A stretch of 64,000 bases of DNA from an uncultured bacterium (GCA_963710755.1 CAVQBK010000003.1:480001-544000); one strand, 5' to 3'. Positions 15,765 to 59,495 are shown, counted from the first letter of the stretch. The notes: a model not told the origin generated them from the letters alone. Numbers and translations are program-made.

Positions 15765-16821
15765 TTCAAGCCCAGGTGAGATGCCATTTAATGGCCTTGG
15801 GATCCTTGTCCTCCAGGTCCACCTTGGTGATTTTGAGCTTGATCAGCGCCAGGAACCCTGTTAGCCAGCCTTTCATAAACAGGCGTAGGAAAACAGGATA
15901 ATCAGGAAAATCCCTAAGCACCAAACTGCATCCCTTGGATCCAAAATTCTCAAGGGTCATGGCGCCGGTGCCATAATAGGATCTCCACAGTTTATCAAAT
16001 TTCTTCAGCACATATTCCTTGGTGGGAATGGATAAGAAGATTTTATAAAACATGGGTGTTTCCTTGGCCGTGGCCAGGCCTAAATCAAACAGGTTTTGCT
16101 CTTCACTGCCTTTAAACAGCAACTGCGCTGCTTCATATAAATGACTGCCTTCTTTGACCATGGGCAAATCCAGCCAGGAGACGGCCAAGCGTTTAAAATC
16201 CTCACGGCACTGGGGCATGAGCCTAGGTAAATAGTCCTTTTCAAAACTAAAGCCCCGGTCCTGTACCACCTTTTTGATCATCACAATGGACGCGCCTTTA
16301 ATTTTATTCATGATTTACTCCTTGAACAGGATTCAAGCCCAGGTGAGATGCCATTTAATGGCCTTGGGATCCTTGTCCTCCAGGTCCACCTTGGTGATTT
16401 TGAGCTTGATCAGCGCCAGGAACCCTGTTAGCCAGCCTTTCATAAACAGGCGTAGGAAAACAGGATAATCAGGAAAATCCCTAAGCACCAAACTGCATCC
16501 CTTGGATCCAAAATTCTCAAGGGTCATGGCGCCGGTGCCATAATAGGATCTCCACAGTTTATCAAATTTCTTCAGCACATATTCCTTGGTGGGAATGGAT
16601 AAGAAGATTTTATAAAACATGGGTGTTTCCTTGGCCGTGGCCAGGCCTAAATCAAACAGGTTTTGCTCTTCACTGCCTTTAAACAGCAACTGCGCTGCTT
16701 CATATAAATGACTGCCTTCTTTGACCATGGGCAAATCCAGCCAGGAGACGGCCAAGCGTTTAAAATCCTCACGGCACTGGGGCATGAGCCTAGGTAAATA
16801 GTCCTTTTCAAAACTAAAGCC
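15765..16821. repeat. Direct repeat, 490 bp x2, period 567 bp
   Basis: 15765..16254 reads identical to 16332..16821 by eye. Confidence 0.92.
15766..16311 (-). CDS. DUF2378/TIGR02265-like protein (copy 1)
   Basis: KIKG start, YKIFL..KLWRSYY.TG, GWLTG and terminal W pattern; AAGGAG RBS. Confidence 0.6.
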   Translation of the reverse strand: MNKIKGASIVMIKKVVQDRGFSFEKDYLPRLMPQCREDFKRLAVSWLDLPMVKEGSHLYEAAQLLFKGSEEQNLFDLGLATAKETPMFYKIFLSIPTKEYVLKKFDKLWRSYYGTGAMTLENFGSKGCSLVLRDFPDYPVFLRLFMKGWLTGFLALIKLKITKVDLEDKDPKAIKWHLTWA

Positions 16822-16878
16822 GCGGTCTTCCACCACTTTTCTGATCATGACGATAGAGGCACCTTTGACTTTATGCAT
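16333..16878 (-). CDS. DUF2378/TIGR02265-like protein (copy 2)
   Basis: Same protein as copy 1 except four substitutions in the first 17 aa; AAGGAG before ATG 16878. Confidence 0.6.
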   Translation of the reverse strand: MHKVKGASIVMIRKVVEDRGFSFEKDYLPRLMPQCREDFKRLAVSWLDLPMVKEGSHLYEAAQLLFKGSEEQNLFDLGLATAKETPMFYKIFLSIPTKEYVLKKFDKLWRSYYGTGAMTLENFGSKGCSLVLRDFPDYPVFLRLFMKGWLTGFLALIKLKITKVDLEDKDPKAIKWHLTWA

Positions 16879-16945
16879 GCTTTTCTCCTTTTTCCCTGGG
16901 AAGAGAGGCACCCAGGCCACATGATGTAATAAATTTACACGCTTA

Positions 16946-16973
16946 GTATCGGCCCTGGAATCTGAAAAATTAA
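16946..16973 (-). promoter_or_regulatory. Putative sigma28 promoter for the first DUF2378 pair
   Basis: Minus strand TTAA-N16-GCCGATAC. Confidence 0.6.
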
Positions 16974-17084
16974 TTGACTAATAGCATATTTATAGTGAAG
17001 TTCAATGGAATGGTTTTTTCCATGGCCGGGCCAGCAATCAGACGGGGAGGTGGAAACTTGAAGAAAAAACAGCCCTTACTTGAT

Positions 17085-17112
17085 TAAGGATCCTGCCGAT
17101 GCCTGCCGATAC
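17085..17112 (+). promoter_or_regulatory. Putative sigma28 promoter for fliD-fliS
   Basis: TAAG-N16-GCCGATAC; a second candidate TAAAG-N15-TACGAAAC lies at 17228..17255. Confidence 0.55.
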
Positions 17113-17296
17113 TGTTGGTGCACATTGCAACCGGGGGAATGCCGAACTTAATAAATATTGAATATAAAACAATTACAAGCAAGGCTCCGATGTTGTGGAT
17201 GGGACGGCTGTTTGGTTAAAATTTAATTAAAGTTAGGCCCCTAATGGTACGAAACCTTTTATAGCAACTGATCGTCGGGGAGAAAGAGGTCGACCA

Positions 17297-19114
17297 ATGG
17301 CATCGGATATTACTTTTACAGGCTTGGCTTCCGGTATTGATACAGCCAGCATTGTGCAAAAATTAATGACCCTCGAACGTCGTCCTCAGGACAACTTGAA
17401 AAATAAAGTCCTCTACAACAGCGGCCTCAATGATGTCTACAGCACCCTTAATTCCCGTTTATCAGCTTTGAAGGATATCGTTAAGGATTTCGACGATATT
17501 GTGAATCCTTTTTTTGAACAAAAAAAAATCAGCACCTCCGACAGCGCGGTATTAAAGGCCACTATTACCGGCTCCTACCCGGCGGTGGGCAATTTTAGTG
17601 TCGATGTCACCGCCCTCGCCACGGCAGCCATGGTTAATGGCAGCGGGGCTTTGTACACGGGAGCGGACAGCACGGCTCAGCCGGCGGTTACCGCCAGTGC
17701 CAGTGGGGTCAATGGCCCCTCCTTAGTTGTTGATCCCAGCCAGTCTTTGGCCAGTCAGAGTGCCAACTTTGCCACGGCACCCCAAGCCTCAGGCAGCATT
17801 ACCATCAACGGTAAAACCATTGTCTGGGATGACAGTATGAGCCTTAATGAAATCATGGGGCAAATCAACAATGCCCACGCAGGGGTGACGGCCAGCTTTG
17901 ACCAGGGAACCCAAACCTTCAGCCTTACCTCCACCGAGATCGGAGCTGATGCGGAGATTATCACCAGCCAAAGCTCGGGTAATCTGTGGGAGACCCTGCA
18001 GGTCACGCCCGGCACCACTACGGGTGCTGATGCCGTAGTAACAGATCTCACCAAGGCTGTGGGGTCAGTGGATGCTCACCTGGATACCGCTGTCACCAGC
18101 GGCACCTTTACCATTAATGGCGTGATCTTTACGGTTGATGCAGCCACGGATACCCTGCAGACCGTGCTGGGGCGCATCAATAATTCCAGTGCCGGTGTCA
18201 ACGCCAGCTATGACACCACCACCGGACGCATTACCCTCTATCAGCAGGAAACCGGCAGCAGCCATCAGATTGTGCTGGGTGCGGCCGGCGACAGCAGTAA
18301 TTTTATCTTTGCCAGCAAACTTTCAGCCACCAATCCGCCGGTGGGCGGCGTCGCCGATACGTACAGTGGCACGGACGCCCTGGTTTCCCTCAACGGCGCT
18401 GCCGCGCAGAGTTACGATAGCAACACTATCAACGGCCTGGTGCCCGGGGTATCCCTTAGTTTGAAGAGTCTCGGCGAGAGCGCGGTCAGTGTGGAACGAG
18501 ACGTGGACGGCATGGTCGATACCGTCAAGGATTTTGTGGATCAATATAACAATGTGTTGACCTATATCAACGGCAAATTAAATGAAACCAAGGTGGAAAA
18601 CCCTTCCACGGTCTCCGACAAACTGCAAGGCGCCTTTGTGGGTGATTCGCTGATCATGGATACCAAGTCCGATCTGATCTCCATGGTAACTCAGGCGGCC
18701 CCGGGTCTTACCAGTGCCCTCAAGCATCTCTCTCAGATCGGCATTGACACCACCTCCGATAATTATGGGAAAGCCGGCACACTGACACTGGATGAAACGC
18801 AATTACGGGCTGCTTTGGAATCCGATCCGGAAAGCGTGGAAGCCCTGTTTAACGATCCCACTGAAGGCATCATGACCAAACTCAAGGAAAAATTGGGAAG
18901 TATGACCGATCCGATCTACGGTAGTTTTACTCTGGAAGAAAAAGCGATCACTGACAACAACAGCGATATTAATAAACGTATCGGGGATATGGAAGAACGG
19001 CTTACCAAACGGGAAGAGCAGCTCAAACTGGAATTTGCCAATATGGAATCCGCCGTGGCGCAACTTAACTCCATGGGATCGGCGTTGACCTCCATGATGG
19101 CTAAACTGGGATAA
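17297..19114 (+). CDS. fliD: Flagellar filament cap protein
   Basis: ITFTGLASGIDT N-terminus, FVDQYN, LSQIGI..GTLTLDE..L, C-terminal F..ME..V.QLN. Confidence 0.95.
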   Translation: MASDITFTGLASGIDTASIVQKLMTLERRPQDNLKNKVLYNSGLNDVYSTLNSRLSALKDIVKDFDDIVNPFFEQKKISTSDSAVLKATITGSYPAVGNFSVDVTALATAAMVNGSGALYTGADSTAQPAVTASASGVNGPSLVVDPSQSLASQSANFATAPQASGSITINGKTIVWDDSMSLNEIMGQINNAHAGVTASFDQGTQTFSLTSTEIGADAEIITSQSSGNLWETLQVTPGTTTGADAVVTDLTKAVGSVDAHLDTAVTSGTFTINGVIFTVDAATDTLQTVLGRINNSSAGVNASYDTTTGRITLYQQETGSSHQIVLGAAGDSSNFIFASKLSATNPPVGGVADTYSGTDALVSLNGAAAQSYDSNTINGLVPGVSLSLKSLGESAVSVERDVDGMVDTVKDFVDQYNNVLTYINGKLNETKVENPSTVSDKLQGAFVGDSLIMDTKSDLISMVTQAAPGLTSALKHLSQIGIDTTSDNYGKAGTLTLDETQLRAALESDPESVEALFNDPTEGIMTKLKEKLGSMTDPIYGSFTLEEKAITDNNSDINKRIGDMEERLTKREEQLKLEFANMESAVAQLNSMGSALTSMMAKLG

Positions 19115-19168
19115 TGAGCGCAACACCAGGCAACAGGTGAACGTTGAGTGACAAGGAGGTCAACAACA

Positions 19169-19597
19169 ATGCAGGCAGCTATGTCCATGAACGCGTATTC
19201 GAACAGTGCCAACACAATGGGTGATTCATTCAAGTCGTCCTATCAGGAGAATCAGGTCTATACCGCCAGCCGGGAAGAATTGATTCTCATGTTGTATGAA
19301 GGGGCGCTTAAATTCATCCGCTTCAGTCTGATAGCTTTGGAAGAACAGGATGTTCCTCAAATCGGGTTTAACATCCTGCGTGCCCAGAAGATTGTCCATT
19401 ATCTGGACATGTGTCTCAACATGGAAGCAGGTAAGGCAATCGCGGAAAATTTATCGCGCCTTTATGATTACATCAATCAAAAACTTTTTGAAGGCCAGCA
19501 AAAGAAAGACGCCGAGGCCATTAAAGAGGCGGCCAAGATCATTGAAACCCTTAAAGAGGCGTGGCAAACAGGTGTGGTTAACAGGACCGAGGCTTAG
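19169..19597 (+). CDS. fliS: Flagellin export chaperone
   Basis: YQENQVYTAS..LILMLYEGA, NLSRLYDY, LKEAW. Confidence 0.95.
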   Translation: MQAAMSMNAYSNSANTMGDSFKSSYQENQVYTASREELILMLYEGALKFIRFSLIALEEQDVPQIGFNILRAQKIVHYLDMCLNMEAGKAIAENLSRLYDYINQKLFEGQQKKDAEAIKEAAKIIETLKEAWQTGVVNRTEA

Positions 19598-19704: not shown

Positions 19705-19745
19705 TAAGTCTATAATAACGGACAGTGGGGAAGGGGAGGCGTTGG

Positions 19746-20627
19746 GTGGATAAAAAAAAGCTCCTGAAAATCACGGAACGGATTACTGAATTTCCCACCC
19801 TGCCTACGGTCATTGCCAGGGTGATGCAGATCATGGATGACCCCAAGTCTTCGGCCGCGGACTTGACCAGTATCATTCAACTCGATCAAGCCATGATGTT
19901 CAGAATTCTCAAGATGGCCAACTCGGCTTATTACGGATTTCCCCGCGCCATTGCCACGGTGACTGAAAGCATTGTCCTGCTGGGCTTTACCACGGTGCGC
20001 AATATTATTCTTACCACCATGATCTACCAATTCGACCAGCTTTGGAACCGCCAACAAGACGTTAAGCCCGGGGCCATGGCTTTTGATCAAATGGAGGAAT
20101 GGCATCACGCCGTGGCCACGGCCATTGCCACTCGCGAACTTATCAGTCTGCAGCATCTGGGGGCTCTGGAAAATTTCGCCTATCTGGCCGGATTGATGCA
20201 TGATATCGGCAAGATCCTTTTCTTTCAGTATATGCCCGAAGATTACAAGCCCGTGCTTCAGGCCTTTCGTAAGAAAAAACAGGCCCTGTGGCAATTGGAA
20301 GAGGACATGCTGGGCGCGGATCACAGCCGGGTAGGCGCCTGGATTGTGGATAAGTGGAATTTGCCCGAAGATATTGTGGTGCCCATCAGCAACCACCACA
20401 CCCCGGAGAGATCCCAGGACCATCAAGAGCTGACCTGGGCATTGTACTGGGGCAATCATATTGCCTATGAGGCCTTGGGGGATCAGCCCCATGAGCCTGA
20501 ACCACAACTATGGCGGCAACAATTGGAAAGCATGATGGACGTGAGCCCGGAAAAGCAGGAAGCTCTGATTGTTAAAATCCGGGAAGAAGTGGATCACATT
20601 AAATCCTATATGGAACTGTCCCAATGA
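19746..20627 (+). CDS. Stand-alone HDOD domain protein
   Basis: PTLP, RILKMANSAYYG, AGLMHDIGK, DHSRVG..WNLP..HH; GTG start after GGGAGG. Confidence 0.9.
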   Translation: MDKKKLLKITERITEFPTLPTVIARVMQIMDDPKSSAADLTSIIQLDQAMMFRILKMANSAYYGFPRAIATVTESIVLLGFTTVRNIILTTMIYQFDQLWNRQQDVKPGAMAFDQMEEWHHAVATAIATRELISLQHLGALENFAYLAGLMHDIGKILFFQYMPEDYKPVLQAFRKKKQALWQLEEDMLGADHSRVGAWIVDKWNLPEDIVVPISNHHTPERSQDHQELTWALYWGNHIAYEALGDQPHEPEPQLWRQQLESMMDVSPEKQEALIVKIREEVDHIKSYMELSQ

Positions 20628-21991
20628 AGAAAAAAATCAATACCAGCCGCATAACAGGCGCAAAGAAGAAAACAGCCGTCTCACCGGTCTCCAAACGTCC
20701 GGCAGTTCCCACCCAAGCCCAGGAACCATCGGGTTTTAAAAACCATATTGATCTTTTGGAAAAGGTCAACCGCAGCCTGCGCGCCTATATTGGGGAGATG
20801 ACCAGTGTCTTCCGGTTTATCGAAACCGTGAGCGGCACTCACTCGTTGCATAAAATTCTTAAACTGCTGCTGGAAGTGGTTAAAGAATTATGTGCCTTCG
20901 ATGCCGGCGTGGTCTATCTGCATAAGCGGGGCAAGGGTGGCGGCAGTATTAAAACCCTTATGGCAGAAGACAATTCGGGTATCATCGAAAAGTTCCGCAA
21001 AACCATGGAGATCGATGAGAACATCTACGAGTGGGTGTTTCGCCAGGGCCAGGCGGTGATTATCCCCGAGAGTTTCCGTAAAAAAAATTCCCGCACCTTT
21101 AAACATTGGTCCTTTTTAATTGCGCCTTTAGTCTCCGGGCAGGAGCAGATCGGCCATCTCGAGCTGGCCTTTGACCGGCCTCAGGGCACCTTTACACAGC
21201 AGATGTTCAGTATTCTCAATGTGCTGCTCAAGCATGCCACGGTCATTCTCGTCAATGAGCGGGTTTATGAAAAAGAACGGCAGACCGCGCAAAAATATAT
21301 GGAATTGGACCTGTTGAAAAAGGACGTGGTCAACACCACCACCCATGAAATTAAAACGCCCTTGACCATCATTCAGGCGGCCAGCATCATCCTGGAAGGG
21401 GACGACAACATCACCTTGACAGAGCGCAAGGAATTGCTGGGCAAGATCATTGAACAATGCCGCCGTATTGATCTGATCGTCAACGAGCTTTTTGAAACCG
21501 CCCAGGTGGATGAACAGGTGCCGCTCATCAAGCCGCGGCCGATTAATTTAAACACTATTACCCGCGAGACCTTGAAGGATGTGCCGCACAATCCCAGCCT
21601 TGTTCATTTCGATCTGAACATTCCCGAGGCCCTGGTCACTTATGCCGACCCCAGCAGTATCTACAAAGTTTTTCGCAACTTAATTGAAAATGCCATCAAA
21701 TATTCTCCTCAAGGAGGACAGATCGTGATCCGTGCTCAGAGGCAGGACAGTAAGGTTCAGTGGATGATCAAGGATCAGGGCGTTGGTATCTCGGCCAAGG
21801 AACAGGAACAAATATTTGATAAATTTTTCCGCGGCGGTGAACTCTCCACCCGCCGGGTGGGCGGTATTGGCCTGGGGTTATATATTGTTAAAAAAAATGT
21901 GGAACTCAATCAGGGAACCGTGCGGGTGCAAAGCACACCTGGCGAAGGCACTACCTTTACGGTTACACTGCCGGGGGACAAAAGTAATTGA
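20624..21991 (+). CDS. Cytoplasmic GAF-domain sensor histidine kinase
   Basis: H-box THEIKTPL, N-box NLIENAIKY, DQGVG, GGIGLGL; GAF-like N-terminal region; no TM segment seen. Confidence 0.9.
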   Translation: MKKKINTSRITGAKKKTAVSPVSKRPAVPTQAQEPSGFKNHIDLLEKVNRSLRAYIGEMTSVFRFIETVSGTHSLHKILKLLLEVVKELCAFDAGVVYLHKRGKGGGSIKTLMAEDNSGIIEKFRKTMEIDENIYEWVFRQGQAVIIPESFRKKNSRTFKHWSFLIAPLVSGQEQIGHLELAFDRPQGTFTQQMFSILNVLLKHATVILVNERVYEKERQTAQKYMELDLLKKDVVNTTTHEIKTPLTIIQAASIILEGDDNITLTERKELLGKIIEQCRRIDLIVNELFETAQVDEQVPLIKPRPINLNTITRETLKDVPHNPSLVHFDLNIPEALVTYADPSSIYKVFRNLIENAIKYSPQGGQIVIRAQRQDSKVQWMIKDQGVGISAKEQEQIFDKFFRGGELSTRRVGGIGLGLYIVKKNVELNQGTVRVQSTPGEGTTFTVTLPGDKSN

Positions 21992-22419: not shown

Positions 22420-22457
22420 TTCATTCCATACTCTGGACCCAAAGTCTATGGAATAAA
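22420..22457. promoter_or_regulatory. Putative upstream activator (bEBP) binding site 1
   Basis: TTCATTCCATA-N16-TATGGAATAAA; near-identical copy at 45581..45618. Confidence 0.7.
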
Positions 22458-22595: not shown

Positions 22596-22612
22596 TTGGC
22601 ACATCTGTTGCT
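22596..22612 (+). promoter_or_regulatory. sigma54 (-24/-12) promoter of the flgB operon
   Basis: TTGGCAC-ATCTG-TTGCT matches consensus. Confidence 0.88.
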
Positions 22613-23203: not shown

Positions 23204-23614
23204 ATGAACATTAATTTTAACGGCTTTGACCTCAATCAAGTCATGCAGGTCCTGGATGTATTACAGGTTAAACATAAGACCCTGGCCGACAACATTGCCA
23301 ATACCAATACGCCCGGGTATATCCGTCAGGACGTGAACTTCCGGCAAGAATTGGAAAAAGTGTTGGAGCAGCCGTCTCCAGCCGCGTCGTTTCAAGACTC
23401 CGGCTATCCGGGGCAAGGACTGGATGCTCTAATGGCCCAGGATATTGAGATCCAGAGTGACACCAGCCAACCGGTCAAAACTGACGGCAATAATGTCAAT
23501 TTAGAGCAGGAAATGGTGGACCTAAGCCAGACCAGTCAGGCTTACGAAATCATGACCAAGCTGGCGTCCAACCGATTTAAACTGGCCAGTTATATTGTGA
23601 GAGGAGGACATTAA
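23204..23614 (+). CDS. flgB: Basal-body rod protein
   Basis: ADNIANTNTPGY, DGNNVNLEQEM. Confidence 0.95.
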   Translation: MNINFNGFDLNQVMQVLDVLQVKHKTLADNIANTNTPGYIRQDVNFRQELEKVLEQPSPAASFQDSGYPGQGLDALMAQDIEIQSDTSQPVKTDGNNVNLEQEMVDLSQTSQAYEIMTKLASNRFKLASYIVRGGH

Positions 23615-23616
23615 GC

Positions 23617-24021
23617 ATGGAAATTTTTCCGGGCATGCTGATCAGCGCCAGTGGGCTGACTGCAGAGCGCACGCGCATGAATGTGATCGCCAATAACATT
23701 GCCAATGTCAACACCACCAAGACCGCCGACGGTTCGGTCTTCAAAAGGCAATTGGTGGAATTAATGTCCGTGGACGGGGACAGCAGCCCCACCGGCGTGC
23801 CGGGCGTGCAGGTGCAGGGCATTGTGGAAGATACGGCACCCTTTAAACTGAGCTATGAACCCAATCATCCTGATGCCAACGCGCAAGGATATGTCACCCG
23901 TCCCAACGTGGATATCATGATGGAAATGGTGGATCTTATCTCCGCCTCGCGCAGCTATGAAGCCAATGTCACGGTGCTGGAAAATGCCAAAGACATGGTG
24001 AAAAACGCCTTGGCGATCTGA
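23617..24021 (+). CDS. flgC: Basal-body rod protein
   Basis: SASGLTAERTRMNVIANNIAN, YEPNHPDA..GYV..PNV, RSYEAN. Confidence 0.97.
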   Translation: MEIFPGMLISASGLTAERTRMNVIANNIANVNTTKTADGSVFKRQLVELMSVDGDSSPTGVPGVQVQGIVEDTAPFKLSYEPNHPDANAQGYVTRPNVDIMMEMVDLISASRSYEANVTVLENAKDMVKNALAI

Positions 24022-24037
24022 AGCTTAAGGAGGTCAC

Positions 24038-24349
24038 ATGATATCCATTGAAGGCATTCCCGGTATTAAACCCATCGTCATGGATAACCTGCTGGCTCCG
24101 GAACGCACGACCGCCAAGCCGGCCGAGGGCAGTTCGTTTCAAAATCTGCTGATGGAAGGCATTAAAACCCTCAACACCCAGGATCAGGAGAGTGCAGCCG
24201 TGACCCAGGCTTTTTTAAAAGGCGAAGGCCCGTCGGTACATACGGTGATGCTGGCCACGGAGCAAGCCAAACTGAGTATGGAATTTGCCGTGCAGATTCG
24301 CAACAAGGTCATGGAAGCCTATCAAGAAGTAATGCGCATGCAGGTCTAA
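24038..24349 (+). CDS. fliE: Hook-basal body complex protein
   Basis: QIRNKVMEAYQEVMRMQV. Confidence 0.96.
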   Translation: MISIEGIPGIKPIVMDNLLAPERTTAKPAEGSSFQNLLMEGIKTLNTQDQESAAVTQAFLKGEGPSVHTVMLATEQAKLSMEFAVQIRNKVMEAYQEVMRMQV

Positions 24350-24392
24350 GCCCGCGGCAGCAAGGGTCACAACATTTTCCGGATGGTGATGC

Positions 24393-25904: not shown

Positions 25905-25975
25905 TCAGTACTCCTCCCATTGAACCGCATTCAAAGACGGCGGGACGAGGGTAGTAGTCAAGTGAGGTTCAGGGT

Positions 25976-49178: not shown

Positions 49179-49202
49179 TACTTTTTTTGGAGGCACAAGG
49201 TC

Positions 49203-49472: not shown

Positions 49473-49491
49473 AGCCGGAACAGAGGTGGGC

Positions 49492-50265: not shown

Positions 50266-50349
50266 GAGCTTGAGCAACTGAATGTCGAAGCTCCCGAGCA
50301 ATTGAGATTCGAAAAAAAGGACGGGTTCGAGCGGAGCAAAAGGTAACTA

Positions 50350-50516: not shown

Positions 50517-50631
50517 TAACTATTGCTGGCATAGGTTCCCGGCATAGATCAAGTTTATCTGTGAGGGCGTAAAGATTTGAGCCCCCACAGTAAGTAAATT
50601 CCGGCTTGGCCGGAATGGCAAGGTGAAAACG

Positions 50632-51699
50632 ATGGCAGAAGCAAACAGAACCGAAGCCGCAACGCCTAAAAAGAAGCGTGAGGCGCGCGACAAGGGAGAA
50701 GTGGCCAGGAGCATTGAGATCAGTGCTGCCGTGAATATGCTGGTGGGGTTGACCGTGGTCTGCCTCTTTGCCGGCCATGTGCTGGCTCAGACCAAGGAGT
50801 TGATCAGTTTTACCTTTGCCCAATTCTCGGCCACGCCCTTGTCCATGGTAAATCTGAGCGAGCTGATGCGCTTTGCCTTGATCAAAATAATAATCATGGC
50901 TGCGCCCATGCTCTTTTTTATCATTTTGGCCATTGTACTGGCCAATTATCTGCAGATTGGTTTCCAGATTGCACCTCAGGCCATCACGCCTAAATTATCC
51001 AATCTCAATCCGCTTAACGGGGTAAAGCGCCTTTTCAATGCCCGCGCCCTGATGGAACTGTTGAAAGCCACCATCAAGGTCTTTTTCGTCATTACCATTG
51101 TATGGGCCATCGTTAAAAGTCATTTGCCGGCCATGGTGCTCATGCTCTCCGGGCCGCTGCCCGCGGTGTTGCAAAGCGTAGGGCAAATGCTCTGGGCCGT
51201 CATTTGGCAACTGGGTTTGTTCTTTCTGTTAGTGGGTGTGCTTGATTATTTCTGGCAACGCTATGAGTTTTTCAAACGTCTGCGCATGACCAAACAGGAA
51301 GTGCGCGATGAGTACAAACAGCAGGAAGGGGACATGCAGATCAAATCGCGGCGTCGGTCGAAACACCGCAAAATGGTGATGACCCGCATTGCCGCAGAAG
51401 TGGCCCGGGCTGATGTGGTCACCACCAACCCCACCCACTATGCCGTGGCCCTGCGCTATGATCAGAACAGTATGCGCGCCCCCAAGGTGGTGGCCAAAGG
51501 TGAAAATCACTGGGCCAAAATCATCCGCCGTCTGGCCATCAAACATCAGGTGCCGGTGATTGAGAACAAAGCGGTGACCAGAGCTATTTACAAACATGTG
51601 GAAGTGGGACGGGAAATCCCGCCCATGCTTTACAAAGCGGTGGCGGAAATTCTGGCGGCCCTGTACAAACTCCGGGCTGGAAAGGGGATGCGTCCATGA
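50632..51699 (+). CDS. flhB: Export gate substrate-switch protein
   Basis: TEAATPKK, MTKQEVRDEYK..EGD, NPTH autocleavage motif. Confidence 0.97.
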   Translation: MAEANRTEAATPKKKREARDKGEVARSIEISAAVNMLVGLTVVCLFAGHVLAQTKELISFTFAQFSATPLSMVNLSELMRFALIKIIIMAAPMLFFIILAIVLANYLQIGFQIAPQAITPKLSNLNPLNGVKRLFNARALMELLKATIKVFFVITIVWAIVKSHLPAMVLMLSGPLPAVLQSVGQMLWAVIWQLGLFFLLVGVLDYFWQRYEFFKRLRMTKQEVRDEYKQQEGDMQIKSRRRSKHRKMVMTRIAAEVARADVVTTNPTHYAVALRYDQNSMRAPKVVAKGENHWAKIIRRLAIKHQVPVIENKAVTRAIYKHVEVGREIPPMLYKAVAEILAALYKLRAGKGMRP

Positions 51700-53759
51700 G
51701 CACTCCGCGTGTCAGTCTCTCCGGGAAAATAGGGGAAATGAGTGTGGTGGTGGGGATCATCGTTTTGCTGATGATCATGGTGATTCCCCTGCCCAGTGCT
51801 TTTTTAAGTTTTCTGATTGTTATTAATCTCTGCATTGCCCTGGTCATTCTCATGCTCTCCATTTATATCAACAAGCCCCTGGAGTTTTCTTCCTTTCCCT
51901 CGGTGCTGCTTATCATGACCCTTTTTGACCTGGGTCTGCACATCTCGGCCACCCGCCTGATCCTGACCACAGCCAACGCTGGCGCCGTCATCCGCGGTTT
52001 TGGAGAAGTGATGACCGGCGGCAACGCCGGGGTGGGACTGGTGCTGTTCGTCATCATCACCATCGTGCAATTTATCGTGATCACCAAGGGCGCGGAACGT
52101 ATCTCGGAAGTCACGGCCCGCTTTACTCTGGATGCCATGCCGGGCAAGCAAATGTCCATTGACGCCGACCTGAATGCAGGCATCATCACCAATGAGGAGG
52201 CTAAGTCCCGGCGTGCTGAAATCACCGATGAATCCAATTTCTACGGTGCCATGGACGGGGCCAGTAAATTTGTCAAAGGCAATGTGATCGCGGGCTTCAT
52301 CATTATTCTTATCAATATTGTAGGCGGAATTCTGATCGGGTTTATCAATCAGCAAATGGATTGGCTGGATATCTTCCGGACCTACACGCTACTGACCATC
52401 GGTGAAGGTCTGGTCATCATTATCCCTTCCTTTTTGACCGCTGTGGCCGCAGCCATCATCATTACCCGGGCAGCCTCGCGGTCCAACCTGGGCACGGCTT
52501 CCATTAAGGAAATGCTGGCCCGGCCCAAGGCGCTGAAGGTGGTGGCTGTGGTGACCTTTATTTTCGGCTGTGCCGGCCTGTTCACCGCCCTGCCGGTCAT
52601 GCCTTTCTGGATCATGTCCGCATTGCTGGTACTGGCCACTATGGCGGCCGAGAAAAGCGAAAAGCAGCAACAGGAAATCGCCGTTAAGACCAAGGAAACC
52701 GAGGAAGAACCGGCGGAGATGGTGGCGCCCTTTCTGCTGGTGCCTCCCATTGAATTGGAGCTGGGCTACGGCCTGCTGGGCATGGTGGACTCGGAACGGC
52801 GGGGCAGCCTGCTGAGCCGCATCAAGATGGTGCGCCAAAATCTGGCTGTGGAACTGGGCATTGTGGTGCCGCCCATCCGGGTTAAGGACAATATCAAGCT
52901 GCCGCAGAATGCCTATACCATCAAGATCAAAGGTGTGGAGAAGACCAGCTATGAAATCTATCCCGGCCACTTTCTGGCCATGAATACCAATAACCAAAAA
53001 GAAAACTTGCCCGGTATCCGCACCAAGGAACCCACCTTCGGTCTGGAGGCCACCTGGCTGGCGGAGAACTGGAAGGACAAAGCCGAGGCCATGGGTTTTA
53101 CGGTGGTGGATGCGGCTACCGTACTCATCACCAATCTGATGGAAGTGCTGCGCGCCAATGCCCATGAAATCCTGGGCCGCCAGGAAGTGCAGGTGCTCAT
53201 TGACCACCTGCGGCCCAGCTATCCTGCGGTGGTGGAGGAATTGCTGCCCCATCTGCTGACCCTGGGGGAGGTGCAGCAGGTGCTTAAAAAATTATTGCAG
53301 GAAAGGGTGCCCATTCGTGACATGGTGACCATCCTGGAAAGCTTGTCCAACGCCGCCCGCCATAACAAGGACCTGGACACACTGGCCGAGCACGTCCGCC
53401 TTTCCCTGGGCAGTGCCATCTGTCAGCAATTTCAGACCAGCAAAAATCTGCTCTCTGTGATTACCATGGATCCTGGCGTGGAACGTCTCATCGCCGACTC
53501 GGTGCAGACCACCACCTATGGTTATACCTATAGTGTGGAACCCAATATACTCCAGAAAATTTACGGCCAGGTAACCAAGATGGTGGAAAAATTCCTGCCC
53601 CATGCCAAACATCCGGTGATTCTCTGTTCCCCGCAGGTGCGGGTGCATTTGAAAAAATTAACGGAGCGGGTCTTCCCGCACCTGGTGGTGATTTCTTACA
53701 ACGAAGTGCCCCAGCAATTCCGGGTGCAGTCTCTGGGCATGGTGGAAATGCCGGTGTAG
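51696..53759 (+). CDS. flhA: Export gate protein
   Basis: KGAERISEVTARFTLDAMPGKQMSIDADL, GAMDGASKFVKG. Confidence 0.97.
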   Translation: MSTPRVSLSGKIGEMSVVVGIIVLLMIMVIPLPSAFLSFLIVINLCIALVILMLSIYINKPLEFSSFPSVLLIMTLFDLGLHISATRLILTTANAGAVIRGFGEVMTGGNAGVGLVLFVIITIVQFIVITKGAERISEVTARFTLDAMPGKQMSIDADLNAGIITNEEAKSRRAEITDESNFYGAMDGASKFVKGNVIAGFIIILINIVGGILIGFINQQMDWLDIFRTYTLLTIGEGLVIIIPSFLTAVAAAIIITRAASRSNLGTASIKEMLARPKALKVVAVVTFIFGCAGLFTALPVMPFWIMSALLVLATMAAEKSEKQQQEIAVKTKETEEEPAEMVAPFLLVPPIELELGYGLLGMVDSERRGSLLSRIKMVRQNLAVELGIVVPPIRVKDNIKLPQNAYTIKIKGVEKTSYEIYPGHFLAMNTNNQKENLPGIRTKEPTFGLEATWLAENWKDKAEAMGFTVVDAATVLITNLMEVLRANAHEILGRQEVQVLIDHLRPSYPAVVEELLPHLLTLGEVQQVLKKLLQERVPIRDMVTILESLSNAARHNKDLDTLAEHVRLSLGSAICQQFQTSKNLLSVITMDPGVERLIADSVQTTTYGYTYSVEPNILQKIYGQVTKMVEKFLPHAKHPVILCSPQVRVHLKKLTERVFPHLVVISYNEVPQQFRVQSLGMVEMPV

Positions 53760-53791: not shown

Positions 53792-55246
53792 ATGGAACAA
53801 CGGCAAAGATTTAAAGTGGTGGCCATAGATGATGAACCGGAAATTTGCTGGCTGATCACACGTATTCTGGAAGAAGCAGGCTACGAAGCCTATATGGCTG
53901 ACAACGGTCCGGACGGGCTGGCCCTGATCAAGCAACATCAGCCGGACCTGGTGCTGCTCGATCTGCGTCTGCCCGGTATGGACGGCCTGGAGATTTTGCG
54001 GCGCCTGCGCGAATTTGACAAGGACCTGATGGTGATTATTCTCTCCGCCTTCGAGAGCTTCGAGGCAGCCGTGCAGGCTATGAAATTGGGATCCTATGAT
54101 TTTTTGACCAAACCCATTAATGTGGAAGAAATGAAAATTACCATGAAAAACGCCTTGCAAACCAAACAACTGGTCAAAGAAGTCAAAGACCTTAAACGGC
54201 AGGTCAAGGAAAGTAAAAGAGCCAGCACCATTGTAGGGCATTGCCCGGCCATGCAGGAACTGGACCGTCAGATTGAACTGGCCAGTGCCCATAATATCTC
54301 TGTGTTGATTCTGGGGGAGAGCGGCACCGGCAAGGAGCTTTTGGCCCGGGCCGTGCACTACCACAGCCAGCGTAAGCAGGAACCTTTTATCTGCATCGAC
54401 TGTTCCACCATCCCCGAGAATTTAATCGAGAGTGAGCTCTTTGGTCATGAACGGGGCGCGTTTACGGGCGCCACAGAGCGTAAGATCGGGCGCCTGGAGC
54501 TGGCACACAAAGGCACGCTTTTTCTGGACGAAATAGGTAATATGCCCATGACCATGCAGATGAAGCTGCTAAGAGTCATTCAGGAACGCACGATTACCCG
54601 TTTGGGCGGAAAGGAATCCATTCCTATTGATATCCGGCTGATCACAGCGACCAACCAGGATCTGCGCCAAAGCATACAGGACGCCGGCTTCCGCCAGGAT
54701 CTTTATTACCGGCTCAATGAATTTCCCATCTGCCTGCCGCCCTTGCGAGAGCGGGGGGAGGACATTCATGTGCTGGCCAAATATTTTCTGGATAAATTCA
54801 ACCACGAGTTTTCCAAGCATCTCTTGGGTTTCACGGCGGAGGCCAAGACCTGCTTGGAAGTCTATCCCTGGCCGGGCAATGTGCGTGAATTGCAGGGTGC
54901 GGTTAAACGGGCGGTAATTTTGGCCGGTGATTGGATTGCGCCGGAGCATCTGCCGGTGGAGATCACCAAGCACGCCAAACTGCCCAGTCATGCGTTTACG
55001 CTGGAGACCTCACTGGACGAGATTAGACCCATTAAAGAAGTCTCCCGGGAAGTGGTGGCCAAAATCGAGCGGGAACTGATCCAGCGGGCTCTGGAAAAAA
55101 CCAAAGGCAACAAGGTCAAAACCGCCCGATGCCTGGGCATTGATTATAAAACCTTGTTTAACAAATTAAGGCAGTATCACATTGAAATGGAAATGCCCAT
55201 GCGGATTGATTCCTCTTCCATGCCGCAATGGCACAGCCTATCCTGA
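53792..55246 (+). CDS. sigma54-dependent response regulator (REC-AAA+-Fis HTH), likely flagellar activator
   Basis: [42 protein letters not shown]-terminal HTH. Confidence 0.93.
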
Positions 55247-55520: not shown

Positions 55521-55609
55521 GCCGCGCCCTATTGAGCTAAGAAAGGCTCCTGCCGATGCTTAGGCGGCAGGGCTACCTCAAGCAAGGTTATGTAAGCGGA
55601 GGAAAAGGC

Positions 55610-56374
55610 ATGACGCCTGAAGAACGCCACGATTGGGAACAATACAAACGCCATCAGGATCCCCAGGCCCATGAACGTTTATGCCAGCGTTATCTGCAGG
55701 ACGTCAAACGTATTGTGGGGCGCATGAGCATTTATATCGGTGACAATGCCATCGATCGTGAAGATTTGGTCCATGCCGGGGTGATCGGGCTCATCAATGC
55801 CATAGAACATTTCGATCTGGGTAAGGAAACAGGGTTCCTTGAATTTGCCTTCAAACGAATCCGGGGCGCTGTGTATGACGAATTGCGCCACCTGGACGGA
55901 TTTTCCTCCCGCTCACGGCGGCAGCAACGGCACTTGGAAAAGGTCAAGGACTTGTTACAGCAGCATTTGTTCCGTGCTCCCTCGGAGGAGGAAACGGCCG
56001 AGGCCATGGGCATCAGTGTCGATAAATTACGGGCCTTGCAGAACAACCTGAAAAACGTCCGCTCCGAACCACTGACGCCCGATATGGAGGAGACTTATTG
56101 TGAGTCAGCTTTGCGGCCGCTCAAGAGCAGCCTGCCTGATGCGGACGGGCTCTCGGCTTTGGAGAAATACCGGGTGGTGGAAAATAAGATCGATCAATTG
56201 CCGGAGCGCACTAAAATTATTCTGAGTCTCTATTATGCGGAAGGGCTGACGCTGAAGGAAATTGCGCAGATCATGGAGATCACCGAATCCCGGGTTTGCC
56301 AGATTCATGCCAATGCCATCGAACTGCTCCATGATCAATTGGATCAAATTAATTCGGTGTTTTTAAGACGGTAG
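55610..56374 (+). CDS. fliA: Flagellar sigma factor sigma28
   Basis: DLVHAGVIGL, RIRGAVYDELR, LYYAEGLTLKEIA..ITESRVCQIH. Confidence 0.95.
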   Translation: MTPEERHDWEQYKRHQDPQAHERLCQRYLQDVKRIVGRMSIYIGDNAIDREDLVHAGVIGLINAIEHFDLGKETGFLEFAFKRIRGAVYDELRHLDGFSSRSRRQQRHLEKVKDLLQQHLFRAPSEEETAEAMGISVDKLRALQNNLKNVRSEPLTPDMEETYCESALRPLKSSLPDADGLSALEKYRVVENKIDQLPERTKIILSLYYAEGLTLKEIAQIMEITESRVCQIHANAIELLHDQLDQINSVFLRR

Positions 56375-56426: not shown

Positions 56427-56741
56427 ATGGTAGAACCGCTCGACGCGCAGAATATGCTCTCGCGCACGCCCCTGGTTGAAAAAACCGTGGCCGCCCAGCA
56501 GGAAAACGCGTCACAGCTGCAGGCCCAGGCCGCCCAGTTTAAAAAGGAGCGGCTCCATGAAGGGGAACACATCCATCGCGAAGGGGAAGCAGACCGTACC
56601 GAGGATCCTCCCAAAAAGGAAGGCCAAGCTCCCCAGGATCAGGATCCACATCAGGCCCAGGGCGGGGCCAAGGAACAGTCCGTGGAATGGGTGGAAGAAA
56701 GCGCCGATGAACCGGCGCATAACCTGGACATCACCATTTAA
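56427..56741 (+). CDS. Hypothetical hydrophilic protein of the flagellar operon
   Basis: AAGGAG RBS; Q/E-rich; ends HNLDITI. Confidence 0.6.
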   Translation: MVEPLDAQNMLSRTPLVEKTVAAQQENASQLQAQAAQFKKERLHEGEHIHREGEADRTEDPPKKEGQAPQDQDPHQAQGGAKEQSVEWVEESADEPAHNLDITI

Positions 56742-56763: not shown

Positions 56764-57483
56764 ATGACGGAATCAGGACGGAATCATTGGCATCGGGTGC
56801 TGACCGTGGCGGACATGATCCAGCCGGCGGAGTACCTTATTCTTACCCTTCCCGATGAGCAACTGCCCATGAAATTTCATCCCCAGGTTATAAGCATTGA
56901 CGGCGACCAACTGGGCCTCAAGCTTCCTTTTCGCTGGTGGCAGTTTTTTGAGTTCACACCGGGGATGACCGTACGGCTGAGCTTGCTCCACCCGGACGGC
57001 GTGTTTTTTATTACGGGACTAATAAAACAAGTCAATTTCAACAAACAGCCCAATTTGTTGGTAGCTCATGACAATGCCATCAAGCGCGATCAGCGCCGCT
57101 TTTTTTACCGGGTCAATGTGGATCAGGAAATCGTGATCAAAGAGTTGGTTTTTCCTGAAGGTCAGCGGATTATGAATTGCCCCGCCCGGATCAGCGATAT
57201 CAGCGCCGGTGGCCTGGGGTTGACGGTGGAAATCTTTCTGCCGCCAGGAACGGTGCTGACCCTTAAAGATTTGCTGGTACTTTTATTGGAAGAACCAATG
57301 CCCCGGGAGGACTGCCAGTTGCAGGTGGTCTGGTGCCGAAAAAGCAAGCGCCAAACCTACCGTATCGGCGCCTGCTTCAACTATGCCGATGTCAGGGCTC
57401 AGGACGAGATGGTGAAGATGATCAACCAGGTGCAGCGCCTTAAATTAATTAAATATCCGCAAGTACGCGGGGCCAGAAAATGA
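56764..57483 (+). CDS. PilZ/YcgR-like c-di-GMP flagellar brake
   Basis: QRRFFYR (RxxxR) and DISAGG (DxSxxG) motifs after an N-terminal beta-rich domain. Confidence 0.88.
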   Translation: MTESGRNHWHRVLTVADMIQPAEYLILTLPDEQLPMKFHPQVISIDGDQLGLKLPFRWWQFFEFTPGMTVRLSLLHPDGVFFITGLIKQVNFNKQPNLLVAHDNAIKRDQRRFFYRVNVDQEIVIKELVFPEGQRIMNCPARISDISAGGLGLTVEIFLPPGTVLTLKDLLVLLLEEPMPREDCQLQVVWCRKSKRQTYRIGACFNYADVRAQDEMVKMINQVQRLKLIKYPQVRGARK

Positions 57484-57498
57484 CATTTCACCAAAACT

Positions 57499-57525
57499 TA
57501 ACTTCATTATTGCTGGCGCCGATAC
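57499..57525 (+). promoter_or_regulatory. Putative sigma28 promoter for HDOD-kinase pair 2
   Basis: TAAC-N15-GCCGATAC. Confidence 0.68.
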
Positions 57526-57576
57526 TTTTACAGCACAGGATAAACACGCCATTCCCACAAGTAAGTGAGGTAGCTC

Positions 57577-58431
57577 ATGCCGTCGGCCAAAATAGATCTT
57601 GAGGCGTTAAATCAAAGACTGCAACATGTATTCCCTATGCCTCAAATACTCTCCAAAATTATGAAAACCATCAATGACCCCAATGCCAGCGCCGCCTCCA
57701 TTGAGCAAGTGTTTAAATATGAACCGAGTTTTACCCTGAAAATTCTGAGCCTGGCCAACTCGGCCTATTATGGCTCTCCCGGCAAGATTACCAACATCCG
57801 GACCGCCATTACATTGCTGGGATTCAATCTGATCAAGAGCATTGCCATTCATGCCAGTGTGAATGAACTTTTTCATACCGGCGCCGGAACCAGCCTCTTT
57901 TCCGGCGTGGATTTATGGAAACATTCGGTGGGCGTGGCGGTCTGCGCCAAGATGATCGCCCGGCGCTGTCATTTGGGTAATGCTGAAGATTTTTTTACGC
58001 TGGGCATTCTCCACGATGTGGGTCTGATCATTGAATATCAGTTTTACCGCAATGAGTTTATCGCTATTCTAAAACATCTGCAGGAAGAACAGCGGCGGCT
58101 GGTGGAAGTGGAAGAAGAAGTGCTGGGGGTGAATCATACGGCGCTCACCAAAATGCTCTGTGATAAATGGTACATGCCTGAAAGCATGAGCATTGGGTTG
58201 GCCTACCATCATCATCCTCTGGAGGCACCCGAGCATTTGCAGGTTTATGCCACGGCGATCTATGTTTCCAATATTCTGGTGCATGAGAAGCAGTTTGGCT
58301 TTACCTATCCCGGCAGCGAGAAAATGGATCCGCCTGTGCTGGAGGTACTGGGTATGAACATGGTGGACTATTCGGTATTGCTGGAAGATTTTGATCAGGA
58401 AATCAATGAACTGTCGATTCTGCTGGATTGA
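57577..58431 (+). CDS. Stand-alone HDOD domain protein
   Basis: KILSLANSAYYG, WKHS, GILHDVG, W.MP..YHH. Confidence 0.9.
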   Translation: MPSAKIDLEALNQRLQHVFPMPQILSKIMKTINDPNASAASIEQVFKYEPSFTLKILSLANSAYYGSPGKITNIRTAITLLGFNLIKSIAIHASVNELFHTGAGTSLFSGVDLWKHSVGVAVCAKMIARRCHLGNAEDFFTLGILHDVGLIIEYQFYRNEFIAILKHLQEEQRRLVEVEEEVLGVNHTALTKMLCDKWYMPESMSIGLAYHHHPLEAPEHLQVYATAIYVSNILVHEKQFGFTYPGSEKMDPPVLEVLGMNMVDYSVLLEDFDQEINELSILLD

Positions 58432-58469
58432 AGCATGAGCCGGCATTATCGGGCAACGAAGGATAAGGG

Positions 58470-59495
58470 ATGATGGATAAACCCAAGGACCAATCAGTGC
58501 TCTATTTATCCAAAGAAGAAGAAGACGTCCTGGTAGCCCAGGCTGGACCGGAAATGCAGGCGGTGATTCACAAATATAAGTCCCGGGTACGTCAGCTGCG
58601 CAAGGAGATCGAAGCCCGCAAGGAAGAAAACGCTCAGATCATCAATGAGAATCTGCAGCAGAACGAGGAATTGCGCAGCATTAACCTGGTATTGGACAAA
58701 AAAATCCAGGACCGTACGGCGGATCTTGAGGCCTCCAAGTTGCAACTGGAAGCACAGAATCAGACCCTCCAGGAAGTCAATGAAACCAAGGAAGCCATGA
58801 TGCACATGATCGTGCATGACATGAAAAATCCGTTGACATCGGTCATGGGCGCCTTGATCCTGGTGCAAAAAATCAAATCCAACCTGCCCCCGGAAATGGT
58901 GGGGTTGTTGAAAGACGCACACGTGCAGTCCATTAAATTAAGAACCATGATGGATGATATCCTAACCATCAGTAAAATGAAATCCAATGAGTTTCAAGTG
59001 GAATTGATGGACGTGGATTTAATCAGCCTGGTGCAGCAGAGTGTGCTGTTGATGAATACGGTTAAAGGCGAAAAAAACGTGACCATTGAATTTCTATCGC
59101 CGCTGCAAGAGTTGGTGGTGACCATGGACTTTCAGATGGTCGAGCGGGTGATCAATAATATCATCAACAATGCTATTAAATACGCGCCTGCCGGCAGTGT
59201 CATTAAATTGAATGTCAGCCGGCAAGAAACCCACGCCTTAGTGACTATTAGCGATATGGGTGAAGGTATTCCGCCCTCCCATCACGAGAAGATATTTGAA
59301 ATGTTCACTCGGGTCAAGCCGCAAGACAAAAAAATCAGTGGCACGGGCCTGGGCTTGGCATTTTGTAAATTGGCCATTGAAGCCCATCATGGCAAAATCT
59401 GGGTAAAATCTCCTGTTGAGGGGCAGACTTGCGGCACCACGTTTCATTTTACCCTGCCGCTTTCAGCTGCCACATCCTCCACCGAAGCCAATTAG
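58470..59495 (+). CDS. Cytoplasmic histidine kinase with coiled-coil N-terminus and no obvious sensor domain
   Basis: VHDMKNPL, NNAIKY, DMGEG, GTGLGL. Confidence 0.92.
   Translation: MMDKPKDQSVLYLSKEEEDVLVAQAGPEMQAVIHKYKSRVRQLRKEIEARKEENAQIINENLQQNEELRSINLVLDKKIQDRTADLEASKLQLEAQNQTLQEVNETKEAMMHMIVHDMKNPLTSVMGALILVQKIKSNLPPEMVGLLKDAHVQSIKLRTMMDDILTISKMKSNEFQVELMDVDLISLVQQSVLLMNTVKGEKNVTIEFLSPLQELVVTMDFQMVERVINNIINNAIKYAPAGSVIKLNVSRQETHALVTISDMGEGIPPSHHEKIFEMFTRVKPQDKKISGTGLGLAFCKLAIEAHHGKIWVKSPVEGQTCGTTFHFTLPLSAATSSTEAN

Follow-up and report, generated by a model that had tools for sequence, protein, structure and literature searches.

FlgS/FlgR of Campylobacter and Helicobacter, FlrB/FlrC of Vibrio and FleS/FleR of Pseudomonas are flagellar two-component systems, and the kinases FlgS and FlrB are soluble. 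In archaea, the CheY-CheF-archaellum coupling illustrates how a motility machine without a FliM docking peptide is served by the Che pathway through an adaptor. The FliM2 protein of Shewanella putrefaciens CN-32 is said to lack the CheY site. As for motility proteins made of the HDOD domain, we know of no described mechanism except for SadB. The HDOD-only protein PSPTO_4229 of Pseudomonas alters swimming and groups with che genes in fitness profiles (PMC11813219), the HDOD proteins PFL_0554, PFL_5871, GsmR and Cj0248 are linked to motility (PMC11004494), SadB acts as a proteolysis adaptor (PMC12075610, PMC6543031), and the secondary flagellar system of S. putrefaciens CN-32 has a PilZ effector, MotL, described there without an extra N-terminal domain (PMC8203827). 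Here we analyse a flagellar locus of an uncultured soil bacterium, contained in a window of 64,000 nucleotides (the whole stretch of DNA under study, G000:C3:480001-544000, whose positions are counted from its first letter), which combines a switch without a CheY site with HDOD genes, soluble kinases and a PilZ protein. The source genome (G000) measures 3.44 Mb in 13 contigs and is 98% complete, the window holds its sole flagellar gene cluster, and contigs of soil-metagenome DNA carry part of the same stretch.

The locus represents a real, conserved variant of flagellar regulation. The flagellar cluster, its sigma54/sigma28 hierarchy and the PilZ protein are already known elements; new are the HDOD-kinase operons, the expansion of HDOD genes and a CheD-HDOD-CheY-CheX module, which are coupled to a switch with a peptide-less FliM. 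The initial annotation of the window had proposed that motility may be regulated by a non-canonical circuit of HDOD-kinase, 'DUF2378-like' and PilZ modules instead of classical chemotaxis. The first and the last of these modules recur at the same positions in relatives' flagellar loci, but the 'DUF2378-like' pairs do not, and the phrase 'instead of classical chemotaxis' is not borne out in view of a complete Che pathway and six methyl-accepting chemotaxis proteins (MCPs) in the genome. The domain content of the locus was established by Pfam and NCBIfam scans of its open reading frames (ORFs), and the comparison covers 15 genomes of the order (G000 to G014, G-numbers designating genomes) and four genomes from two other families (G025, G036, G092 and G093), all within a phylum sample of 99 genomes.

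The switch proteins of the locus are encoded by two adjoining genes:

46431..47447, + strand: fliM, without the CheY-docking peptide
47447..47977, + strand: fliN, without a FliY-type N-terminus

Neither protein carries the LSQxEIDxLL peptide, in agreement with the initial annotation, as is evident from the N-terminal sequence of both. FliM begins with MASSEKRAAKAPATLASIPVRVRRYDF, its ATG follows AAGGAG and its reading frame extends no further than 11 codons upstream, while the alignment to the NCBIfam FliM equivalog TIGR01397 begins at profile position 32 and reaches 89 bits against a cut-off of 219.6. The middle domain (PF02154, 31.3 bits, cut-off 27) and the C-terminal domain (PF01052, FliMN_C, 58.6 bits) are present, and the identity to canonical FliM is only 18-25%. 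The peptide is missing from FliM in all seven flagellated genomes of the order and from the second FliM of G025 and G036; elsewhere in the phylum sample, 16 FliM bear a clear [LI]L[SN]xxE[ILV]xAL[LM] N-terminus (in a comparison of 28 rows, three of which are wrong ORFs). In a search of 1.84 billion proteins, six cluster representatives match the FliM of the window at E<1e-30, and all six are peptide-less. A mis-called start of FliM was considered and is rejected on account of the closed frame and by the retention of the trait in seven genomes and six database representatives. Among the best 150 FliM matches, 98 fit the motif expression and 52 do not, about a dozen of the latter carrying variants, and peptide-less FliM is therefore not unique in nature. 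The whole source genome yields one FliM match and two FliMN_C matches, and since the latter are FliM and FliN themselves, there is no second FliM and no FliY; of the two findings that the initial annotation had named as jointly telling against it, a che system and a second FliM or FliY with the peptide elsewhere in the genome, only the former is present. A loose regular expression for a displaced docking peptide at any ORF start of G000 gave two loose matches near starts, neither of them flagellar. From these sequences, canonical docking of phosphorylated CheY (CheY-P) on FliM is impossible in G000 and in 7/7 flagellated genomes of the order, as the textbook step from CheY-P to the FliM N-terminus cannot occur with a FliM that lacks the docking peptide.

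Judging by FlhA, the cluster belongs to a distinct flagellar lineage, which we call 'type-2'. FlhA and FliM are present in seven of the 15 genomes of the order (G000, G001, G003, G007, G012, G013 and G014) and both are lacking in the other eight, including G009 and G011, which are 100% complete. Identity to the FlhA of the window amounts to 68-94% within the order, to 51-52% for the second FlhA of G025, G036, G092 and G093, and to 43-48% for every primary FlhA. A quick maximum-likelihood tree of FlhA (27 rows; a quick search only, with an arbitrary root and with a bad ORF on a long branch as the G017 row) sets the seven flagellated members of the order, together with the second FlhA of G025 and G036, on one side of a branch with a Shimodaira-Hasegawa-like approximate likelihood ratio (SH-aLRT) support of 100, and places the primary FlhA of G025 and G036 elsewhere. 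Type-2 is the sole flagellum in this order, with one FlhA and one FliM in G000, and a second flagellum in G025, G036, G092 and G093, where it stands beside a primary, CheY-responsive system in the manner of secondary CheY-insensitive flagella. Unlike the secondary flagella of Shewanella, type-2 is the only flagellum of G000, HDOD-kinase operons are integral to it, and in relatives it is accompanied by a dedicated che cluster with HDOD.

The most distinctive component of the locus is formed by two operon-like gene pairs:

19725..20627, + strand: HDOD1, a stand-alone HDOD gene (HDOD match 1e-53)
20624..21991, + strand: GAF-HK1, a soluble GAF-HisKA-HATPase kinase, overlapping HDOD1 by 4 bp
57577..58431, + strand: HDOD2 (HDOD match 5.1e-52)
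58470..59495, + strand: HK2, with a coiled coil, HisKA and HATPase and without a sensor domain, directly after HDOD2

The two pairs of HDOD and soluble kinase announced by the initial annotation are thus real, and none of the four proteins has a transmembrane-like window. HDOD1 and HDOD2 match the whole HDOD model (PF08668); the nearest solved structure to HDOD2 is 3hc1 (1.1e-27), and the structure of Cj0248, 1vqr, matches at 3.5e-13. HDOD1, which is preceded by the terminator-like hairpin of fliS, lies directly upstream of GAF-HK1 in 6/6 genomes examined, orthologues of GAF-HK1 adjoin HDOD genes in G003, G007, G014, G025 and G036, and the order fliS-HDOD1-GAFHK1-flgB is kept in G003, G007 and G014. 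Orthologues of HDOD2 occupy the same place in these three genomes, and the order fliA-small ORF-PilZ-HDOD2-HK2 is kept in G003 and G007. In G025, the genes HDOD-GAFHK-HDOD-HDOD are situated directly upstream of flgB of the second system, and G036 has the same four genes, but elsewhere; in both genomes, a kinase adjoins fliA and the sigma54 activator. The locus proteins resemble the known HDOD motility proteins in being stand-alone, of about 280-300 aa and linked to swimming systems. They differ from them in gene setting, being encoded either in an operon with a histidine kinase or next to CheY-like receivers, CheD and CheX, and in their 4-12 fold multiplication along with a single flagellar lineage.

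This multiplication is apparent from the number of HDOD matches at E<=1e-30 across the 99 genomes of the phylum sample. The 11 genomes with type-2 FlhA have 8, 9, 5, 7, 12, 10, 10, 6, 4, 4 and 4 HDOD genes, whereas 87 of the remaining 88 have none or one, the exception being G033 with four, in long multi-domain frames. Since 53 of the 54 genomes with a primary FlhA only have 0-1 HDOD genes, the signal is not one of motility in general. Relatives are not independent, and the association comes down to about five independent contrasts: G007 against G009 within one genus (seven HDOD genes in the flagellated G007, one in the non-flagellated G009); g9 against g8 in family f2; g1 and g3 against g2, g4, g5 and g6 in family f1; G025 against three g14 genomes in family f7; and g29 against g60-g62 in family f12. 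Across the 99 genomes, HDOD copy number follows the type-2 lineage.

The source genome has eight HDOD genes, six of which are fused or adjacent to a kinase or a receiver (REC) domain, and all eight proteins keep the H, HD, H and HH residues (H..HD..H..HH). Besides HDOD1 and HDOD2, they comprise:

G000 C3:281232-283161: HDOD3 and HK3, a pair paralogous to the pairs of the locus
a REC-HDOD fusion, flanked by the genes of a PAS kinase and a REC-HD protein
the pair HDOD5 and REC5
the pair REC6 and HDOD6
two orphan HDOD genes

In a FastTree of 24 HDOD sequences, read by topology alone, a che/REC-linked clade lies apart from the kinase-linked clades, and HDOD1 groups with the GAF-kinase-linked copies of G025 and G036. 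In 3/3 relatives examined (G007 contig C1, G014 contig C11 and G025 contig C14), additional che clusters contain CheD-HDOD and, next to it, a CheY-like receiver and CheX, with some variation in gene order:

L070:15997-18202 (G007): module CheD-HDOD(x1-2)-CheY-like-CheX
L071:4931-9085 (G014): the same module
L063:16814-19873 (G025): the same module, adjoining the second flagellar cluster

Because G000 is devoid of such an extra che cluster, its che-type HDOD genes stand beside REC genes or alone. Judged by titles and the beginnings of abstracts, no paper in the literature retrieved places HDOD genes within che operons or links them to a FliM without the peptide.

The regulatory sites of the locus comprise:

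22424..22453, + strand: palindrome TTCCATA-N16-TATGGAA, ending 144 nt before the flgB-operon promoter
22597..22612, + strand: sigma54-type promoter TGGCAC-N5-TTGCT, upstream of the FlgN-like ORF and of the flgB operon
45585..45614, + strand: palindrome TTCCATA-N16-TATGGAA, ending 144 nt before the fliL promoter
45758..45773, + strand: sigma54-type promoter before fliL, kept in 4/4 genomes
57498..57524, + strand: sigma28-like box TTAAC-N16-CCGATA before HDOD2
upstream of flagellin: box TTTAAG-N15/16-GCGAAT-like, kept in 4/4 genomes
upstream of fliD: box TTAAAG-N16-ACGAWW, present in 4/4 genomes
upstream of DUFa2: box TTAATT-N15-CCGATA, before the first 185-aa pair

The window contains two matches to TGGCAY-N5-TTGCW, one at 22597 ahead of the flgB operon and one at 45758 ahead of the fliL operon, and TTCCATA-N16-TATGGAA is present exactly twice, against an expectation of 0. 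G003, G007 and G014 have the same two sigma54 promoters, each with the palindrome ending 128-140 nt upstream, so that it precedes 8/8 sigma54 promoters in four genomes at a distance of 128-144 nt. Most simply, the palindrome may be read as the enhancer bound by the sigma54 activator of the cluster. This activator, a REC-AAA+-HTH protein, is the single response regulator of the locus, as had been annotated, and the only REC protein among the ORFs scanned. Its presence in the cluster, the sigma54 promoters on structural operons and the soluble kinases nearby recall systems of the FlgS/FlgR type. The activator scores 326.8 and 326.9 bits against the FlgR and FlbD equivalogs, below their cut-offs of 750, and, unlike FlgS/FlgR, the locus encodes two kinases, both with an HDOD gene as partner and with a GAF domain or no sensor domain.

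For the late genes, the strict E. coli-type sigma28 pattern TAAA-N15-CCGAWA gave no match. The regions upstream of fliC and fliD in four genomes share TTTAAG/TTAAAG-N15-16-(G/A)CGAWW, and a -10-like CCGATA box with an upstream TTAA precedes the first 185-aa pair (DUFa2), fliD and HDOD2. The statement of the initial annotation that a sigma28-like promoter stands before each pair accordingly applies to the first 185-aa pair and to HDOD2, but hardly to HDOD1 and the second 185-aa pair (DUFb2, CCGTTA), where the boxes are weak. A relaxed genome-wide scan, crude and made without a proper null model, yielded 100 matches, of which 32 precede an ORF, including fliD, HDOD2, DUFa2 and several REC or kinase genes.

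The third conserved component lies between fliA and HDOD2:

56427..56741, + strand: 104-aa ORF, with homologous ORFs of 105-119 aa in the same place in G003, G007 and G014
56764..57483, + strand: PilZ protein of about 239 aa, with a 109-aa N-terminal domain and a PilZ domain (PF07238, 3.2e-11)

The presence of a PilZ/YcgR-like gene, as annotated, was confirmed, its RRxxxR and DxSxxG motifs being intact and kept as QRRFFYR and DISAGG in 4/4 genomes. The PilZ ORF as first listed (TTG at 56476, 335 aa) is probably too long, with a start predicted near 56764, as relatives show a separate ORF of the 104-aa type followed by a PilZ protein of about 239 aa. Like the brakes YcgR, MotI and FlgZ, the protein has intact motifs for cyclic di-GMP (c-di-GMP) and, at around 240 aa, includes an N-terminal domain, and its gene lies within the flagellar regulon, next to fliA; the location of a PilZ gene within the flagellar cluster is also shared with the Shewanella system. 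Unlike in YcgR-type brakes, residues 1-109 have no Pfam match at E<=1, to PilZN/YcgR or any other model, and a search of the PDB by sequence gave nothing meaningful and no solved relative; MotL, for its part, differs in the absence of the extra N-terminal domain. The 104-aa ORF begins with MVEPLDAQNMLSRTPL and has no Pfam match, and its position (56427-56741) would suit a candidate anti-sigma-28 factor.

We propose the following composite explanation, to which, taken as a whole, we give an even chance. HDOD1 and HDOD2 would be regulatory or sensing partners of the soluble kinases to which they are translationally linked, a role suggested by the translational coupling, by the sensor-less architecture of HK2 and by the Rosetta-stone REC-HDOD fusions. 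The sigma54 activator would be phosphorylated at least by GAF-HK1, which accompanies every type-2 system examined; the activator would bind the palindromes and switch on the structural operons. FliA would then turn on the late genes, including fliD and probably HDOD2-HK2. Once assembly is complete, the PilZ protein, binding c-di-GMP, would tune the motor as a brake or clutch. Kinases of the HK2/HK3 type might also act through the single-domain receivers that lie beside che/REC-linked HDOD proteins elsewhere in the genome, thereby forming a behavioural layer. Within this scheme, we hold more firmly to a dedicated role of the HDOD-kinase modules in regulating this flagellum than to the outputs assigned to them. 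A predicted complex of two HK2 chains (residues 30-341) with HDOD2 scored 0.30 against a mark of 0.32, in a run from small alignments without controls, and speaks neither for nor against the pairing.

Besides the limits of the FlhA tree and the small number of independent contrasts, several observations weigh against this explanation. In G014, PilZ and HDOD2 are present on the other strand and HK2 is absent. The sigma28 box of HDOD2 has similar counterparts in G003 and G014 and is absent in G007, and the box before HDOD1 (CCGAGA) is weak. G000 and G003 have only three CheW matches each and are devoid of the additional HDOD-bearing che cluster. The core CheA bears a P2 domain, its cluster contains CheC and CheD, and the core Che pathway may steer the motor by another contact. 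Finally, the kinases may simply feed the sigma54 activator, which would amount to transcription and not to motor control.

This last possibility can be extended into a purely transcriptional account, in which the HDOD-kinase pairs would be FlgS/FlrB-like kinases of the sigma54 activator, serving for example an assembly checkpoint, and the c-di-GMP brake would be the only input to the motor. It agrees with the activator being the sole REC protein of the locus, with the conserved putative enhancers at both sigma54 promoters, with the solubility of the kinases and with the kinase next to fliA and the activator in G025 and G036. It fits less well with HDOD2-HK2, which are apparently under a late, sigma28-type promoter in three of four genomes, with HDOD3-HK3 and the HDOD-REC pairs, which lie outside the flagellar locus and are yet lost together with flagella, and with the HDOD genes embedded in the che operons of relatives. 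In addition, PSPTO_4229 behaves like a che gene in Pseudomonas (PMC11813219). We consider this account unlikely as a full description of the system.

A second alternative is that the core Che pathway still steers this flagellum, CheY-P contacting the FliM middle domain or FliN or using an adaptor, and that the HDOD-kinase pairs are unrelated regulators. There are indeed no che or MCP genes at the locus, as initially annotated (CheW, MCPsignal, CheR, CheB, CheC and CheD domains were found in none of the 45 ORFs scanned between 13051 and 63999), and all CheW and MCP matches of G000 lie outside the window. The genome nevertheless has a CheA with P2, two CheW, two CheY, CheB, CheR, two CheC/X, CheD and six MCPs above the cut-off, encoded in part by two gene groups:

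cheA (Hpt-P2-dimerisation-ATPase-CheW), then a CheC/CheX protein, then a 711-aa PilM/FtsA-like protein
core che cluster in the order CheR-TPR-CheW-TPR-PII-CheY-CheC-CheD-CheW-CheY-CheB

A P2-bearing CheA with CheC and CheD is typical of flagellar Che classes, and E. coli CheY-P also touches FliN and the FliM middle domain. The completeness of this pathway, and the lack of any other che cluster in G000 and G003, speak for the alternative. Against it, the same core persists throughout the order (CheW matches in 15/15 genomes, with the same 4.6-kb CheW-CheW spacing), and MCPs occur in 5/5 non-flagellated genomes tested, with 1-7 each. Since 8/15 genomes keep Che without FlhA or FliM, the core pathway must, in half of the order, act on something other than flagella. 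Type IV pili may be this target: PilT was found in 15/15 genomes searched, and the core CheA, adjoining the PilM/FtsA-like gene, is located 12-25 kb from pilT on the same contig in six genomes. Moreover, no flagellar ORF in G000 begins with a CheY-docking-like peptide, as judged by the loose regular expression, and the crude sigma28-box scan marked no che or MCP gene. We conclude that the general Che pathway of G000 is probably not dedicated to this flagellum, and its control of this motor appears improbable to us. As a separate observation, the core cluster includes a P-II nitrogen-regulatory gene between a TPR gene and cheY (L009:13824-14162; G000 C3, ~1063.8 kb).

It could also be speculated that HDOD is a coupling device for the peptide-less switch, phosphorylated CheY-like receivers or HDOD-bound kinases acting on the C-ring through HDOD, an idea that we hold to be doubtful at present. 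If true, HDOD would be the bacterial counterpart of the archaeal CheY-CheF adaptor, with a defined role in motor control, which would account for the CheD-HDOD-CheY-CheX modules as well as for the swimming phenotypes associated with HDOD-only proteins of Pseudomonas and Campylobacter; archaeal CheF and HDOD have no homology, and an adaptor role of HDOD is speculation. Finally, that HDOD and kinase genes are general signalling genes hitch-hiking without dedicated function on a horizontally moving flagellar island is very improbable, because copies over four contigs vanish together with the flagellum (for example G007 versus G009) and positions within the locus are kept in two families of the order and to some extent in G025, even though type-2 looks mobile in the phylum, as a second system in two other families, and many HDOD copies lie outside the flagellar locus.

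Two further kinds of element in the locus are judged not to belong to the conserved system:

15766..16920 (15766-16311, 16333-16920), - strand: first 'DUF2378-like' pair, about 185 aa each, 97-98% identical
34926..36089 (34926-35489, 35532-36089), - strand: second 'DUF2378-like' pair, 73% identical
36372..44987, + strand: 2871-aa membrane protein, inserted between motB and fliL

Both pairs of the initial annotation are genuine paralogue pairs, but their family label is not confirmed, as there is no Pfam (E<=1) or NCBIfam (E<=0.01) match. The DUF2378 models (PF09536 / TIGR02265) matched none of the four 185-aa proteins, a PDB profile search with the family gave no match, and the only link to DUF2378 is a neighbour cluster of a language model (rank 7, Atlas) in which 17% of members carry PF09536. 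This soluble family has at least 22 copies in G000, often in tandem (e.g. C13:107083-109018 and C6:28643-29842), with 22, 26, 20, 17, 10, 9 and 13 copies in the flagellated and 0, 3, 5, 14, 1, 15, 1 and 18 in the non-flagellated genomes of the order, and none found in six genomes of other families. The pairs are absent from the flagellar loci of G003, G007 and G014. A role as flagellar regulators was therefore rejected, the family neither following flagella nor occurring in the flagellar loci of relatives, and the pairs, equally abundant without flagella, are treated as local insertions. The 2871-aa protein has no Pfam or NCBIfam match and is absent from the flagellar loci of relatives; its gene, too, is judged to be a local insertion that does not belong with the flagellar genes. 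The domain of about 420 aa at the protein's N-terminus (residues ~40-460) has around 33 more copies in G000, at 30-38% identity, on contigs C1, C2, C3, C4, C5, C6, C11, C12 and C13, and the nearest Atlas clusters of this N-terminus are unnamed and mostly from Candidatus Omnitrophota.

The remaining features of the window are the following:

1539-11491, + strand: methyltransferase/glycosyltransferase block, directly upstream of flagellin
11703..12581, + strand: flagellin (Flagellin_N 1e-34, Flagellin_C 1.3e-29)
within 13051-15719, - strand: baeRF gene (bacterial eRF1-like, baeRF family 7, 1.9e-37), between flagellin and the first 185-aa pair
within 13051-15719: HEAT-repeat gene, between flagellin and the first 185-aa pair
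17297..19597, + strand: fliD and fliS (FliD_N/C and FliS domains)
between GAF-HK1 and flgB: FlgN-like ORF, downstream of the sigma54-type promoter at 22597
23204..32569, + strand: flgB, flgC, fliE, fliF, fliG, fliH-fliI (one ORF), fliJ, fliK, flgD and flgE (Pfam)
between flgE and motA: flbD-like ORF
33158..34821, + strand: motA and motB (MotA_ExbB, MotB_plug, OmpA)
45780..46397, + strand: fliL (FliL 4.4e-17)
47977..53759, + strand: FliO-like ORF, fliP, fliQ, fliR, flhB and flhA
53792..55246, + strand: REC-AAA+-HTH sigma54 activator (Sigma54_activat 2.4e-70, Response_reg 1.8e-29)
between the sigma54 activator and fliA: 84-aa membrane ORF
55556..56374, + strand: fliA, sigma28 (TIGR02479, 190.4 bits, cut-off 189.6)
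downstream of HK2: NlpC/P60 genes

The genes flgF/G and flgL lie outside the window, 10-18 kb upstream. The block at 1539-11491, one member of which is a 1261-aa multi-domain protein, is kept in G003 and G007 and is probably a flagellin glycosylation island, while the baeRF and HEAT-repeat genes appear unrelated to motility. The gene order of the flgB-flgE block is maintained in relatives. The FliH and FliI domains are joined in one ORF of ~650-700 aa (26862-28970, + strand), the true start of which is uncertain as it overlaps the end of fliG; a single FliH-FliI ORF is likewise found in G003, G007, G014 and the second system of G036, and may represent a fusion conserved within the lineage. Between fliR and flhB, a gap of 357 bp (50266-50622) contains inverted repeats of ~20 bp, GTTCTTGTTGCGGAAA ... 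TTTCCGCAACAAGAAC, flanking a G-rich segment, possibly a small repeat element inserted there.

HDOD is a widespread signalling domain without an assigned function, whose knock-outs alter swimming in several model bacteria. The lineage described here constitutes a natural experiment, in which the CheY dock has been lost and 4-12 HDOD genes come and go with the type-2 flagellum, and it offers candidate protein pairs, namely HDOD with kinases, with CheY-like receivers and with switch proteins. It also indicates that a Che pathway in a flagellated genome is no proof that it steers that flagellum, and the conserved enhancer-promoter pairs provide a clean definition of a regulon for this uncultured group.

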